Source of the DNA: Mytilus trossulus
Taxonomy: Eukaryota
Assembly: GCF_036588685.1 (NCBI RefSeq)
Contig: NC_086377.1
Span: forward strand, 22,320,001 to 22,384,000
Direction: 5' to 3'
DNA length: 64,000 nucleotides
This document shows, in pieces, positions 10,245 to 64,000 of this stretch. The notes under the pieces are model-generated. The model had not been told where the DNA came from. It did no database searches and saw nothing but the letters and a program-made list of their open reading frames with translations. The translations under genes were made by a program, and so were the position numbers. Numbering within the stretch: position 1 is the stretch's first letter; the number at the start of each line of letters is the position of its first letter.

Positions 10245-10822
10245 GATGAAGTGGGGTTTGATCACGTTAAAGTTGTTTTTTGATATAGCTGCAATGGGTT
10301 TTTGAGCACGCTGAAGTGTGATCTTGCTCAAGTTGAAGTGGAATTGTGATCAAGCTGCAGTAGGTATTTGATCTCGGTGAAGTGGATTTTTGATCACTCT
10401 GAAGTGGTTTTTGGTCACGCTGAAGTAGATTTTTGACATAGCTGTAGTGTGTTTTTGTTCACACTGAAGTGTGTTTTTGATCAAGCTATAGTGGGTTTTT
10501 GATCACGCTGAAGTGGATTTTTGATCACTCTGAAGTTGTTTTTGGTCACGCTGAAGTAGATTTATGACATAGCTGTAGTGTGTTTTTGTTCCCGCTGAAG
10601 TTTTTTTTTTATCAAGCTGCAGTGGGTATTTTATCACGCTGAAGTGGGTTTTTAAATAAAACTAGTGGGTTTTTGATCATGCTGAAGTGTGTTTTTGATC
10701 AAGGTGCAGTGGGTATTTTATCACGCTGAAGTGGGTTTACGAATAAAGCTGCAGTGGGTTTTCATTCACGCTGAAGTGTGATTTTGATCAAGCTTCAAAG
10801 GATAATTCATCACGCTGGAGTG
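10245..10822. repeat. Degenerate minisatellite, ~21-22-bp unit (gctgaagtgggtttttgatcac)
   Basis: Roughly 25 tandem imperfect copies are visible, with higher-order duplication of blocks. Confidence 0.9.
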
Positions 10823-12387
10823 TGTACTGTATTTATTTGGAAATAACAAAATCCATCGTTTAGAAAAAATCCACTGGAAAAATATGCACATAAAATATCA
10901 GCGATACATTCGTTTTATCATATTCTTATAGAAAAAAAAATGATATAATTTAACCCAATGATAAAACTAGCTTTCTACATATATTTAGTCATTTATTTGA
11001 AGAATTGCTGTAGCCGTGTGATATGACTTTTCTTGTTAACTGCTTCCGGTTTATATCAACTGCTTGCGTCTCATATCAATTACTTCCGGTTATTATCGCA
11101 TGCTTTTCTGTAACTTTATCGCATGACATTTCGATTTCAATTTTCAAATTCTGGGAAAAACACCTCATTGATACCTTTTTATTTGTGGGTAAAACATTAC
11201 AAAATATGGATAAAAAAATTAAGAATCAGGAAAATACATTATTTATAAATGCAAAACAAGTATTACAACACATGCAATTTTCTAAAGTTTTAAAAATAGT
11301 TTTCTGTAAATATTCTGCTATGAAGTATACGATGAAACGCAGCAAAAAAAGTACAGAAGATCTTCAATTTCTTAGAAATCGCTGATTAAAAATAAGCGGT
11401 TGGGGGAATTACACCAAAAAGAAGTGACATGTCAGGTCATAATTGTTACCAAATGTAACCATAGGATGCAATAAAATAGTAATTTGTGAGAATTAGGATG
11501 ACATTAAACAATTATTGTGTTTGTCTGTTTGTCTTTTTCATTTTTAGCCATTAAGTTGTCAGTTTGTTTTAGATTTAAGAGTTTGACTGTCTCTTTGGTA
11601 TCTTTCGTCCCTCTTTTAAATAAGATCGTTAAAAATTACCTTGTAGACGTAATGCATGAACGTTCTTTTGAATTGATAAAATTTCCAATGTTCAATGTCT
11701 TGAACTGTGTGTGAACGTTGTTAGTTTTAAGTTTGATTTTTTTAAATCTTTTATGGATGCAAGATTTCAAAGTATTTATGCATATGAAATTGTCACTGTT
11801 ATGTACTTTTACGAAATAACCAATTTATTATGATATTTTAGCGTTAATGTATTTATAAGACTTTTTAAGCCTTTTGCAAGTATCTAATACCATTTTTACT
11901 ACAATCATGTAATATTGTTTGTAAATACTATGATGTGCATTTTGATGACGCAGGAGTCAGTACCCCGCTGGGGCTTGCCCCCGTTGTAAAGGGGTAGTTT
12001 CACAATAAAATATATATATTACATGATTTGTTATTTCCGCATTGATCACACTATTTTTTGTATCGTAGGGCTTTCCTATTCGTCAAAAATGGAGAAGGCC
12101 TGTTGATATCGTATTGCTTTAACATTTACTACATTAAAACATGGCTGTACCAAGTCAAGAGTATGACAGTTGCTGTCTTTTCTTTATCCTCCTCAACATG
12201 TGTACAGAAAAAATAAAGAATAATTTTTTTAGAAGGCTACTTTGGAAAATGTTCGAGTTGTTGACAAAACGTAATTAACAAATACAGAAATCTTCTAATG
12301 GCATACTTTTTACAACAAATGATTTGATGTGGCCTCTAAAATAAATGCAGATTTTGCAAATCTAATGTTCATTAAAACTAATAAATA

Positions 12388-13889: not shown

Positions 13890-34724
<20,835 letters not shown>

Positions 34725-56521: not shown

Positions 56522-59500
56522 TGTGTAGCTTTTTTTCCTTTTGAAAAATATTACAACATTTTTATTCTGATTGGTGTACAATTTTATGAATAATTTCGTT
56601 TTGTAGAAAATATACTCAACTGTTTTGTCTACACATTGATTGAATTTTCTAACATAGTGGATACTCAATTGCGTTGTTGTTTTTAACGGAAATGTAAGTT
56701 TTTAACTAATCTTTTTGTATATGTTTCTGATTAACATTTAAATTGAATTGAATGATATCCGTTGACAGTGTTTAATTCATGTGGCACTTTCTCAAGATAA
56801 TTATATTCGGATAGGTCTACATTTTTATGGATTATTATTCTATATAACCTAAACAACACAGTTTTAGAAGGCTTATATTTTTCTTATATGGTGCGTGGAT
56901 TGTGGACGACAATGTGTGTTTTTCAAATATTGTTGTTTACAAATTACTTTACTATACAACTTAAATTGAATGGAGTTCTTAGAAAGTGTTTAATTTTTCA
57001 ATAAATCTACCGCATTGTTTATACAATTAAAATAATAGTATAACTAAACAGTGATACATTTATCTAGTGCAAGAATATAGACAACAGTGTTGGTTTTAAA
57101 TCAAATCAAACCAAACTTTCTTGACATTGGTTTATAATGCCATTTATAGTAAAATTCAAGAGTTGTAAAGAGGGACGAAAGATACCAGATAAACTCATAG
57201 ATTGAAAATAATCTGACAACGGCATGGCAAAAAAAAAGACCAAGAGCAAATACTATCACATAAGACACAACATAGATGCATGATAATATAGCAAGTTGAT
57301 GTAGTTGGGTAATGGATGTTGATGTTCATTTCATTTATACAAAATAGTGATCAATAGCGATTAAGTTAAAGTATGTCTGACAAGCATTATTATCCATACA
57401 TCACGACGATAACTGTAGACAACATATACACATCGTAAATAATATTACACTATCCAGAAACTGTTATAATTTATCAATTGTATTATGCGCAATGGTATAC
57501 GTTCAATAACCAGTCGAAAATAACTGTGAATCTTACCTAAATTATATATATGGTGTCCTTTTGTTACATTATTATCTTTCGTATATGCATAAAGGTAAAG
57601 GTTATCTCTGATTATAAGGTAAATGTAAAATCTAGTCCAAAGGTTACCCTATATTTTATTGTTTTAAGTAATATAAAATAGGTACATTCCCTTCTAGAAT
57701 TAAAAAGTAAACCTTGACTTTAATTTAACATGTTGTGTTATTTTTCCACATAACAGCTCCTATTAAAAAAAATAACAAATGTGAAATACCTGAACGGTAC
57801 AAATTTAAAGTATGATAACAATTAGTAATTATATTTACCAATTACATGAATTATGCCCTTGTAAGAATGATTAAAGTTGCGATAAAGAAACCCATGGTGT
57901 AATAACTTCGATGTAATACAAAGATTGTTTTCGTTAAAATCAAAATCGTAGATACATACACGAGCGAATGGAACAAATTGAGATTTATAAACACCATAAG
58001 ATTGTTAGAAAGAAACATCTTCGTCTACGTGTAACAATATATAATTAACAATAACAATTGAAAAAATAATCTATTCTATCAGTATTAAATCACGTAAGGT
58101 ATTACAATTCTCTGCATGGTCATGTTTTTAACAGAGAGGCATATGTGGATGATAATAAAAGTATCTCACTGTGTTATCCTTCACCTTCACTAAAATAGAT
58201 TTGGCTCGTTTAATTTTCAGAAAACTTTGACAAGGTATTTACATTGACCCTTTGACAAAAATACAGAAATATTACACTAGTTATATAATAGTTTGACGAA
58301 CACTTATTTAGATCAGCAAGAGGCTTAATATTAACAACAAGTCCTGCAATCAAGCTATTGAATTGTACAAATATAACATTTTTTTAAATTTCTTAAATCA
58401 TAAGTATGTCGTTTATCAGTATTACCAATGTTATTTAAACTGATCGGGCGGAGCTTAAGTTTTAATTAGCATAAGGACAGTCTATTTGAAGATGTGTGTG
58501 GCAAGGATGATTACCGTTATAATTATAACTGATTTCTAATCACCTATCAGTGTTATCAAAGTAATTTACTAAAGAATAACTGGACACTTCATTAATGAGT
58601 TTATCCTAAAACACCTATTCATAGATGGAATGGTTTGTGATGAGCGAACTGGTGAAGCTCCGCCCAGTCAAGTGAAATAAATAGAGTAATATCAATAATC
58701 AGTAAACATGTGAATTTCAATAGTGTCCACACGGGTATGCTGATATGAACTGCTTGCTTCCTGTTTCTGTATGAATATGACATTATTTTTTGTTTCAAAG
58801 CCCTTATCAAGTTTCCTTGTGTACATTGATTTATAATGATGTGTGTTTTTATTATAAATAGGTAATAACAGCGTTATGACCATAACTCAACCCGTTCAGT
58901 TACAGTAACACACATTAATCATGACAGGTGAGTTTGTATATATTTATTAATTGAAACGTTAAATGTGTTAACATCACATGTAAAGGCAAAATAGGACTAA
59001 CTTTATAAACAAAAAGCTTCTTATATCTTTACTTGATATATAAGGGAAACAAACAGAAAATATTCACTACCAAATATACATACTTCTTCAGAAAAACTAA
59101 ATGGTTTTCAACAATAGCATATCCAATTAATCCGGTCTTTAATACGGAAATGATGAATGTTTATCATGTTTATTGTTTGAAGGTAACATATAATCACAAT
59201 TTTCCAAGGGAATCCATTTCAATTATATTTTCCCCGAGTTTGTTCGCATTTCCTCCCTGATCAATTGTATTTATGACAACCATATTGTGAAAGTTCGCTA
59301 TCCTCCCCCCGTATATTCAAAAGAACCTTCAAGTACACATATCAAATTATAACACTAAAGGTTTTTCTCATTGAGTAAGACTCCTCAATACATCAACATA
59401 ATTTAAAGACTTCACATGTAAATATAATCAAAACAATACTAGTGTACGAGGGTATCACCAGCCAAGTAGCCAGTACTTCGGTACTGGCATGAAAATACGG

Positions 59501-59683
59501 ATTTGTTTGTGTTATTAAAATTTGCTGTTACAAAATATTAGAAATTATTATAAATTAAGGAATGTATCTCCCTCATGCAAAGCTCTGATTCCTTTCATGA
59601 ATTTGACTATACTTTTTGGACCTTTTGGATTGTAGCTCTTCATCTTTTATTTAAGCTTTGCATTTCAAATATTTTGGCCACGA

Positions 59684-59727
59684 GCATCACTGAAGAGACA
59701 TTTTTTGTCGAAATGCGCATCTGGTGC
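59684..59727 (+). ncRNA. Type I hammerhead ribozyme, unit 1
   Basis: GCAUCA-CUGAAGA-GACA(uuuuu)UGUC-GAAA-UGCGCA-UC-UGGUGC. Predicted cleavage after 59721. Confidence 0.88.
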
Positions 59728-60034
59728 AACAAAATTGGTACCGTTGATTTTATTACTACCACTGGGTCGATGCCTCTGCTGGTGGACTATTAGTCCCCGA
59801 GGGTATCACCAGCCCAGTAGCCAGTACTTCGGTACTGGCATGAAAATACAGATTTGTTTGTGTTATTAAAATTTGCTGTTACAAAATATTAGAAATTATT
59901 ATAAATTAAGGAATGTATCTCCCTCATGCAAAGCTCTGATTCCTTTCACGAATTTGACTTTACTTTTTGGACCTTTTGGATTGTAGCTCTTCATCTTTTA
60001 TAGAAGCTTTGGATTTCAAATATTTTGGCCACGA

Positions 60035-60078
60035 GCATCACTGAAGAGATATTTTTTGTCGAAATGCGCATCTGGTGC
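60035..60078 (+). ncRNA. Type I hammerhead ribozyme, unit 2
   Basis: Same core. A C>U change in stem II keeps a wobble pair. Predicted cleavage after 60072. Confidence 0.85.
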
Positions 60079-60373
60079 AACAGAATTGGTACCGTTGATT
60101 TTATTACTACCACTGGGTCGATGCCTCTGCTGGTGGAACATTAGTCCCCGAGGGTATCACCAGCCCATTAGCCAGTACCGAAAAATACGGATTTGTTTGT
60201 GTTATTAAAATTTGCTGTTACAAAATATTAGAAATTATTATAAATTAAGGAATGTATCTCCCTCATGCAAAGCTCTGATTCCTTTTACGAATTTGACTAT
60301 ACTTTTTGGACCTTTTGGATTGTAGCTCTTCATCTTTTATATAAGCTTTGGATTTCAAATATTTTGGCCACGA

Positions 60374-60416
60374 GCATCACTGAAGAGACATTTTTTGTCG
60401 AAATGGCATATGGTGC
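60374..60416 (+). ncRNA. Type I hammerhead ribozyme, unit 3 (variant)
   Basis: Core intact, but there is a 1-nt deletion in the stem III palindrome (UGGCA) and the cleavage site is UA. Confidence 0.6.
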
Positions 60417-60519
60417 AACAAAATTGGTACCGTTGATTTTATTACGGGTTTAAAATCTTCTGAACATTGACGAAGAAAAGAAATCAATGTAACTTAGTAC
60501 ACACTATTGGAATCTCATT

Positions 60520-63349: not shown

Positions 63350-63790
63350 AATCCACTGATTTTTTGAAGACGAAACACGCGTCTGTCGTAAATATTAGAT
63401 TGTATTCCTGGTATCTATGATGAGTTTATTTGTAACCACTGGATCGATGCCATTGCTGGTGAAGATTTATTTCCCCGAGGGTATCACCAGCCTAGTAGTC
63501 AGCACTTCTGTGTTGACTTGAGTTATCATTGATATGATTATAATTAAAAATTAACTGATAACAAAATGTTGTAGTTTTGAAAAACCAACTTAAAGGACTT
63601 TCTTCCTCTGGAATAGATTGTATTTGGCAAACCTTTTAGTAATTTTTGGTCCTCAATGCTCTTTAATTTCGTACTGTATTTGGCCTTTATAACATTTTTG
63701 ATTCGAGTGTCACTGATGAGTCTTTTGAAGACCAAACGCGTGTCTGGTGTAAATATTAAATTTCATTCCTGATATCTTTGATGAGTTTAT
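63350..63790 (+). mobile_element. Retrozyme family 2, ~1.2 tandem units (period ~361 nt) with two damaged hammerheads
   Basis: HHR remnants end at 63383 (core partly deleted) and 63744 (GAAA mutated to CAAA). Shares the structured module of family 1. Confidence 0.75.
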
Positions 63791-64000
63791 TTGATAGGCA
63801 ACTGGTTGATTATAACCTATCAAAATATTAAAAAAAAACATCTTCGACAGTAAAAAAAAAGTAATGGTTGGAATTTTAAAAAGATGTTTGCCTGACGATC
63901 TGGACGACCCGACACGGCTGATTGTGTTTTAGTCAAGGTATTTAATACAAAGAATACGGATTTTCAGTGTCTTTTTTATTGTTCACCTGAATATGTTATA

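Follow-up and report, generated by a model that had tools for sequence, protein, structure and literature searches.

The 64,000-nt stretch of the Mytilus trossulus genome analyzed here (contig NC_086377.1, positions 22,320,001 to 22,384,000; hereafter the window) holds tandem retrozyme repeats in which the hammerhead is followed by a second conserved RNA segment, and it raises the question of what this segment is and why a non-coding repeat should keep it. A sequence-only reading had drawn it as a pseudoknot and had offered four guesses at its role: reverse transcriptase (RT) recruitment, ligation, stability or a new ribozyme. Our data replace the pseudoknot with a nested hairpin and, of the four guesses, favor RT recruitment on comparative grounds; no positive evidence emerged for a ribozyme, ligation or stability role.

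Retrozyme families and the fold of their shared module

The module occurs in four retrozyme families (F1, F2a, F2b and F3), whose units of 351, 354, about 364 to 385 and 349 bp fall within the ~170 to 400 bp of retrozyme tandem units; hammerhead core motifs, of the type I expected of a non-LTR retrozyme, are present in the F1, F2a and F2b units. One window copy reached 33 bits with the Rfam Hammerhead_1 model (cut-off, 34), and the F1 copies gave no Rfam match at E<=5. In the F1 array (Table 1), the first predicted cut lies 39 nt ahead of the first helix, close to the 40 nt given by the sequence-only reading; a second hammerhead copy has its predicted cut after 60072, and the 3' end of the array stops ~6 to 7 nt short of the expected start of the next P0 helix. 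Exact matches to the 5' half of the module number 15,867 across the 1.3-Gb genome, versus 2 for a reversed control, and one hammerhead motif has 25,828. Family F3 (349 bp; L181, L171, L173 and L460, e.g., G000:C6:61793648-61796678) keeps the module beside a variant hammerhead and is found in RNA reads. The window further contains unrelated tandem repeats, with 22-bp, 43-bp and 498-bp periods (10257-10825, 23628-23847 and 1939-2982, respectively). A 125-bp repeat occurs at 20550-28479 in nine dispersed copies, spaced 0.5 to 1.4 kb apart, which are possibly repeated exons.

Table 1. Retrozyme features of the window, with the basis or remarks for each.
Feature	Position	Strand	Basis or remarks
F2a fragment, decayed	26084..26193	+	Internal deletion took the 3' half of the module
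Family F1 retrozyme array	59447..60445	+	351-bp unit, 2.9 copies; 5'-truncated within a module
Hammerhead motif of type I with CUGAAGA core, GAAA and a minimal stem III	59683..59727	+	Predicted cut after 59721
U/A-rich linker, 5' of hairpin	59745..59760	+	Putative RT start site 59754-59756; 3'-end mode, read ends
Module, nested bulged hairpin	59761..59818	+	RNAalifold, pair counts, per-family tables, z-scores
Helices of the module	P0 59761-67/59812-18; PA 59769-74/59802-07; 4-nt bulge 59808-11	+	
Invariant core CUGCUGGUGGA / variable loop / UCCCCGAG	59776..59801	+	Three short predicted helices, GC and U bulges
UUCG-capped hairpin, 8 bp	59820..59839	+	Compensated among retrozyme families; Naiads without it
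CAUGA	59839..59843	+	9-21 nt past P0 in 8/8 families
Second F1 module copy, degenerate	60112..60180	+	Altered loop, truncated terminal hairpin
Family F2b retrozyme array	63362..63793	+	Module 63438-63517; 3' end just short of next module

Every strand named by the sequence-only reading is in place (ACTGGG 59761-66 with CCCAGT 59813-18, GATGCC 59769-74 with GGTATC 59802-07, and GCTGGTG 59778-84 with CACCAGC 59807-13), as are its inner hairpin, GGACT-ATT-AGTCC at 59784-96, and the 8-bp UUCG hairpin. Shuffled sequences fold less well than the module (z = -2.86; 2 of 200 shuffles equally good), and the module is more conserved than the remaining unit (83 to 93% versus 61 to 78% identity among the four families), which bears out the claim of a second conserved RNA structure.

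Covariation was assessed on a MAFFT alignment, made from sequence only, of three retrozyme rows and four rows from three families of Naiads, the autonomous elements described below; these rows are few and related. Naiad A, whose inserted 24-nt hairpin was misaligned by MAFFT, was kept out and scored by anchors instead. RNAalifold folded the seven rows as a nested hairpin with a 7-bp P0, a 6-bp PA, a 4-nt 3' bulge, a bulged core and a variable loop. In this model, 161 of 161 cells are paired and 7 of the 23 pairs are altered on both sides, a double-change count matched by 0 of 500 shuffles, and slid controls were 36 to 50% paired. P0 and PA covary between the retrozyme and Naiad families, and anchor scoring of Naiad A added three further double changes in P0, together with the extra 24-nt hairpin, which follows PA. 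The core is invariant in 7/7 aligned rows and in both Naiad A rows and, among the matches listed, near-invariant in published Naiad consensus sequences. As eight core pairs never vary, it is folding energy and not covariation that argues for them. The invariant core is likely to form a protein-contact surface.

The element is therefore a nested bulged hairpin (59761-59818) and not the proposed pseudoknot. None of the five pairs of the crossing helix shows a double change, and 30 of its 35 cells are paired, versus 100% for the nested model. Because the helix is invariant among the retrozyme families compared, it is untestable there, but autonomous relatives can test it: with the Naiads added, one or two mismatches break it in three of the four families (G, A and F), and it is kept in H with two G-U pairs. 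An invariant 5' strand means that no double change could have arisen in it. The helix would also use C59807 from PA, G59812 and C59813 from P0 and G59784 from the inner hairpin; its pair probability in the nested ensemble is 0.00, ViennaRNA being unable to score it jointly with PA; and the GCUGGUG strand belongs to the invariant core, where it is predicted to pair with UCCCCGAG.

Other parts of the sequence-only reading held in part. Its covariation between families is seen in the inner and terminal hairpins, but both "crossing" helices are invariant among the families compared. The family 2 copy at 63438-63517 does keep both of these strand pairs and a compensated terminal stem, although its outer helix is mismatched at one point and a sequence other than UUCG forms its loop. 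A copy placed near 26123 is present (26091-26141), with the 3' half of its module missing. The UUCG hairpin, counted there as a part of the module, is compensated between retrozymes but specific to them, being missing from the Naiads.

The pseudoknot might nevertheless form transiently, with the 4-nt bulge docking on the core UGGU to act as a switch, such as one between translation and reverse transcription. Complementarity is complete (7/7) in F1, F2a and F2b, extends to Naiad H with its two G-U pairs and is partial for the bulge of Naiads G, A and F. We consider such docking unlikely: there are zero double changes, 5 of 35 cells are unpaired, Naiads G, A and F each carry one or two mismatches, and the bases required are already engaged in P0, PA and the core. 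In the published Naiads of oyster, pearl oyster and deep-sea mussel, inspection by eye shows no complementarity.

The hairpin is probably not a ribozyme. Rfam gave no match at E<=5, either at this locus or at the four Naiad module loci searched, which agrees with the earlier impression that the HDV, twister and pistol layouts do not fit; covariance models of twister, twister-sister, pistol and hatchet likewise gave no match at E<=5 at any of these loci. HDV-like ribozymes form a P1-P2-P3-P1.1-P4 nested double pseudoknot with a catalytic C in J4/2. The module has no P3 adjoining the 3' strand of PA, no P4 or J4/2, and no Rfam match to this class.

Naiad elements as carriers of the module

A GIY-YIG search of the genome yielded Naiad-type ORFs and four canonical Penelope-like element (PLE) families. 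Among these ORFs, the module accompanies only the Naiad type, where it lies directly past the usual 3' end and ahead of the start codon, so that the suggested look at autonomous Penelope-like elements led to Naiads as the candidate partner. Pattern and protein searches added three further Naiad families with the module, making four in total (G, A, H and F). Canonical PLEs with a C-terminal endonuclease were rejected as partners: the flanks of 12 ORF copies from the four families lack the module, and most end in (TA)n.

Naiad G is closest to the retrozymes (83 to 86% over the module) and is represented by nine intact 1000-aa ORF copies that are 97 to 100% identical. Its frame carries an N-terminal GIY-YIG at 136, CxC at 431, GPKY (GxKF/Y) at 466, DKA at 558 and a C-terminal RT with YIDD at 844, with Pfam matches in the expected domain order, below cut-off; the N terminus of Naiad A resembles, by eye, the published Naiad_Mgal. 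At L449, Naiad G forms a 3,370-bp tandem (pLTR), the sense strand of which holds no CUGANGA..GAAA hammerhead core. Outside one local array, 22 of 23 Naiad G modules are preceded by at least 39 nt of the element's own 3' UTR. In BLAST comparisons with Naiad G, the F1, F2a and F2b units match significantly only over their first 61 to 68 nt (unit 1-68; 85 to 87%). CAUGA, 9 to 21 nt past P0 in 8/8 families, holds the first ATG of the ORF in Naiad G, which suggests capture of a Naiad leader; the retrozyme CAUGA would then be a relic of a captured Naiad 5' leader, and within the Naiads a G-like family appears, by closeness of sequence, the most likely partner.

Craig et al. 2021 (PMC8557442) searched Naiads for SECIS elements and hammerheads, and passages of that paper describe them as lacking canonical hammerheads; its main-text passages and supplement metadata yielded no description of a 5' hairpin. 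Among the matches listed from its supplement, judged by eye, at least 16 of 54 published Naiad consensus sequences carry the core at or near their start: three from corals, nine from bivalves, three hemichordate families and one from a fish, that is, four phyla. These look-ups covered 20 of 22 matches in one set and the first 30 of 124 in another, which extended past the Naiad file, and a motif broken by a line break may be missed, making 16/54 a lower bound; presence of the core is not universal among Naiads. In these published sequences, viewed by eye and not tool-aligned, P0 and PA still pair despite many changes, and the crossing helix is unpaired in several.

Further carriers exist, since predicted proteins P0013, P0014 and P0041 from other assemblies start with a translation of the module region (e.g., GGQFVPEGI), meaning that gene callers read through it. 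JGI/ENA metagenomes gave four loci, three of them retrozyme copies and one a chance match inside an ORF; an IMG/VR scan with the bare core gave 120 loci, 4 with six flanking pairs and none in a retrozyme or Naiad context, and was taken as chance. Module-only tandems occur ahead of the ORF in family G (78 bp x 11, L468, G000:C5:60421608-60422405) and in family A (131 bp x 7, G000:C12:27544300-27545109), and may be the trace of template jumping that recurred at the start site. The Naiad 3' UTRs contain an apparent second conserved segment ~90 to 190 nt before the end (L449:6510-6615; equivalents in A and F), with no retrozyme match.

Insertion ends and a possible start of reverse transcription

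Insertions of the non-LTR type are copied from their 3' end, so that fixed 3' ends combined with scattered 5' ends mark the start of reverse transcription. We mapped the ends of retrozyme arrays by BLAST with natural reference copies, taking positions relative to the first P0 base; the interval from -15 to +2 was set after terminal hammerhead copies had been seen stopping just ahead of the module. A "blind" set comprised 97 loci (761 kb) not chosen for retrozymes, 7 of which had been among the loci inspected beforehand. The interval captured the 3' ends of 29/39 blind, 40/58 module-picked, 35/44 hammerhead-picked and 7/9 window cases (111/150 overall), with 10/39 blind and 39/150 total ends outside it, versus 1/41, 8/56, 1/42 and 0/9, respectively, for 5' ends. 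For the blind set, 3' and 5' ends differ with a Fisher p of 3e-12, and the binomial value is 1e-29 against a chance expectation of ~5%. Since the 3'-end mode stays at -5 to -7 in F1, F2a and F2b while the distance from cut to P0 is 39, 47 and about 52 nt, the ends track the hairpin and not the ribozyme. In F3, with a different hammerhead and a cut-to-P0 distance of 44 nt, 9 of 11 3' ends lie at the module boundary; these are the rows that reach F3's own end region, the other 40 of 51 being cross-matches of other families and excluded. Target-site duplications of >=7 bp flank 3 of the 97 arrays.

A fifth hammerhead repeat, F4, lacks the module and served as a control. At its loci (L469-L480, e.g., G000:C1:1538664-1543266), the unit is ~550 to 577 bp (573 bp in L472), sense expression is strong in three runs, and a TAGAC..TATAT motif precedes the (TA)n end, as in canonical PLE families B and C. 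This 573-bp repeat has nearly the F1 hammerhead and 2,867 motif matches; 5 of 9 ends lie at another position, 4 of these running into (TA)n. F4 is probably mobilized by a different PLE.

Over 81 Naiad loci, alignment ends fall at -15 to +2 in 40/69 cases for G, 38/77 for A, 34/36 for H and 3/20 for F, and 0/202 pass +2, alignments starting <=30 nt from P0 or later having been excluded as module-only retrozyme matches. In Naiad A, 30 of 30 ends stop ahead of the module. Roughly 40 to 50% of the G and A alignment ends lie further upstream, many at shared positions, and we read these as probable decay or cross-matches between Naiad families. Genome-wide, end motifs number 11,946 versus 141 modules for Naiad G and 1,039 versus 50 for Naiad A. 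In the window, 3'-end fragments of Naiads G and F at 29008 and 30608, respectively (both on the minus strand), end 4 to 5 nt ahead of the module position. Elsewhere (L067:5239-5400, L066:6894-7050 and L351), retrozyme ends adjoin Naiad 3' ends in opposite orientation, which suggests a common target preference or nested insertion.

Four RNA-seq runs under the same species label, from other individuals, show that the retrozyme repeat is transcribed in hammerhead polarity, the polarity that the sequence-only reading had given to the module: first mates over the module are ~3- to 5-fold more frequent on the minus than on the plus strand in three of the four runs and balanced in the fourth, the strand call assuming the usual stranded chemistry. 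Sense-strand depth is unbroken across the module. First-mate starts pile up at 60069, 3 nt ahead of the second hammerhead cut, in 3/4 runs, and no pile of read starts or ends occurs at -6 in the four runs, a weak test as the RNA was fragmented. Heterogeneous loose read ends appear at 59754/59755 in 4/4 runs, and Naiad G reads diverge into heterogeneous sequence at L449:6693-96 (-8 to -5), beyond which depth drops from several hundred to about 20 or fewer. The loose ends are most likely genomic insertion ends within host transcripts, not RNA ends, and as such they confirm the boundary at population scale.

Taken as positional and comparative support for binding and initiation, these data suggest that the hairpin common to retrozymes and Naiads is quite probably the site where the Naiad RT binds and is positioned to start copying. 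Passages of PMC7229834 describe how hammerhead cuts release mussel retrozyme monomers, which are then ligated into circles, and report circular RNA and self-cleavage as demonstrated; the sequence of the circle junction is identical to that of the tandem junction. In the mechanism that we propose, the Naiad protein would bind the invariant bulged core while its GIY-YIG domain nicks AT-rich DNA. The nick would be primed on the U-rich linker 5 to 8 nt upstream of P0, leaving the hairpin ahead of the start, where it is not copied first. On a circle or a tandem transcript, the enzyme would copy round through hammerhead and hairpin and so produce arrays with a single fixed 3' end and scattered 5' ends. 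Such a start 5' of the hairpin, with copying round, would explain the tandem arrays, the pseudo-LTR and a hairpin that is absent from most copies yet conserved. The retrozyme lineage may have taken the Naiad leader, from the hairpin to the start codon, and fused it with a hammerhead, which Naiad G lacks; the most likely donor is a family-G-like element. More tentatively, and with slightly more doubt than confidence, we propose that the hairpin is a portable docking domain of ~60 to 85 nt, conserved from corals to a fish, that would be enough for a telomerase-related RT to prime at a fixed distance 5' on any RNA, including an end-less circle.

The genomic ends fit internal priming and an RNA end made at the same place alike. 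Instead of docking an RT, a self-cleaving or protein-assisted processing element might cut ~6 nt upstream of the hairpin, replacing the hammerhead missing in Naiads, and the RT would then start at the new RNA 3' end in a LINE-like manner. Sharp 3' ends and an invariant bulged core would suit such an element, and the HDV-like ribozymes of other retroelements, which cut at their own 5' edge, offer a precedent. The canonical hammerheads that Naiads lack, according to passages of PMC8557442, would leave room for it. We nevertheless judge processing to be as improbable as transient docking. It predicts full-length copies from -6, but full-length-type 5' starts <=15 nt from the module are rare: 1/41 in the blind set, 1/24 in Naiad A and 1/23 in Naiad G outside one local array, with 8/56 in the module-picked set. 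Reads pile up near the hammerhead cut and not at -6, within the limits of fragmented RNA; no Rfam ribozyme matches; and mussel retrozymes are mostly intact circles in the passages of PMC7229834.

A role at the level of DNA or transcription is less likely still. The sequence could be an internal promoter, a terminator or an endonuclease site in the pseudo-LTR, with an RNA end or a DNA nick setting the boundary; its location in the Naiad 5' leader, just ahead of the ATG, would agree with this, as would the need of the Drosophila Penelope endonuclease for tail sequence in recognition (work cited in passages of PMC11167929). However, double changes and one-sided changes of the G-U type preserve RNA pairing, sense RNA depth runs on through the module, and the inserted ends are without the module, which therefore cannot be the target at new sites. 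Least probable of all is a translation-control leader of the Naiad ORF carried passively by retrozymes, which accords with the CAUGA spacing past the hairpin in 8/8 families but leaves unexplained both the fixed 3' ends and the 83 to 93% conservation in four non-coding families whose other sequence is at 61 to 78%.

Relation to known systems

In the Anolis Poseidon PLE (PAc; Frangieh et al. 2024, PMC11167929), internal initiation at a stem-loop was shown directly, and genomic ends fall on the start sites. The likeness to PAc lies in a putative start inside the RNA, near the pLTR-ORF junction and downstream of the hammerhead, in genomic 3' ends that mark this start and in AT-rich targets; in retrozymes and Naiads alike, 3' ends in the genome fall at a fixed internal position next to a structure. 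PAc has two start sites, a 30- to 40-bp tail and a start that lies in a stem-loop of AC-rich sequence, none of which is seen in the Naiad/retrozyme element, with its single peak and U/A-rich start region. The element also differs in that it belongs to the Naiad clade with its N-terminal endonuclease, that the predicted start is placed on a single-stranded linker 5' of a long hairpin with bulges, that the core is kept across four phyla and that a non-coding element would use it in trans; moreover, initiation is inferred here and was observed in vitro for PAc.

Cervera and de la Pena 2020 (PMC7229834) described mussel non-LTR retrozymes, with PLEs proposed as mobilisers, and the repeats studied here share with those in its passages the ~350-bp tandem units, the type I hammerhead, motif copies in the tens of thousands and sense transcription. 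Whereas the main-text passages of that paper name no cis element or partner family, we describe a candidate partner clade and a shared RNA element, along with four module-bearing retrozyme families and one without the module. Xenopus retrozymes were described by Li, Clavereau and Pollet 2026 (bioRxiv 10.64898/2026.07.22.740005) as pLTR derivatives and non-autonomous partners of PLEs, on the basis of homology to the pLTRs of Repbase-annotated PLEs; that work includes no mollusc and no structure and leaves the mechanism open. In the mussel, unlike in Xenopus, homology is confined to a 60-nt hairpin from a Naiad that has no hammerhead core. That preprint and the passages of PMC7229834 left open the identity of the RT that copies the retrozyme circles of animals and its way of priming on RNA without ends; the element would name the partner clade and offers a 58-nt target with a predicted start site. 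A hammerhead-less clade such as Naiad is unexpected as the likely partner because the shared hammerhead was a main argument linking retrozymes to PLEs. We found no description of the motif in the literature searched, which did not extend to Repbase reports or to papers available by subscription only.

According to passages of PMC8557442, TERT has the PLE RTs as its sister group. If the proposed role is true, an RT of telomerase's sister group would have an RNA motif conserved across phyla, and the common end of the truncated Naiad and retrozyme copies sampled here would be explained. If the hairpin is moreover a portable docking domain, each retrozyme would be a chimera in which a hammerhead is combined with a start signal captured from a Naiad, and the retrozyme/Naiad pair would be a minimal two-part system that writes circular RNA into genomes. 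The hairpin would be a potential portable signal for RNA-templated insertion tools.

The hairpin would resemble the template domain of telomerase RNA in layout, as a structured domain that positions the enzyme next to an internal template. It has no short reiterated template and no supported pseudoknot. In SINE-LINE pairs, the non-autonomous element keeps only the RNA part recognized by the partner RT, namely a shared 3' tail; the hairpin, in contrast, would derive from the 5' leader of the partner, is situated downstream of the predicted start and is missing from the inserted 3' end. By analogy, the element may work both like the internal-initiation signal of a PLE and like the tail that a SINE and its LINE share for recognition. 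Unlike either of these, it is a hairpin with deep conservation that sits downstream of the predicted start and would have been acquired from a hammerhead-less partner.
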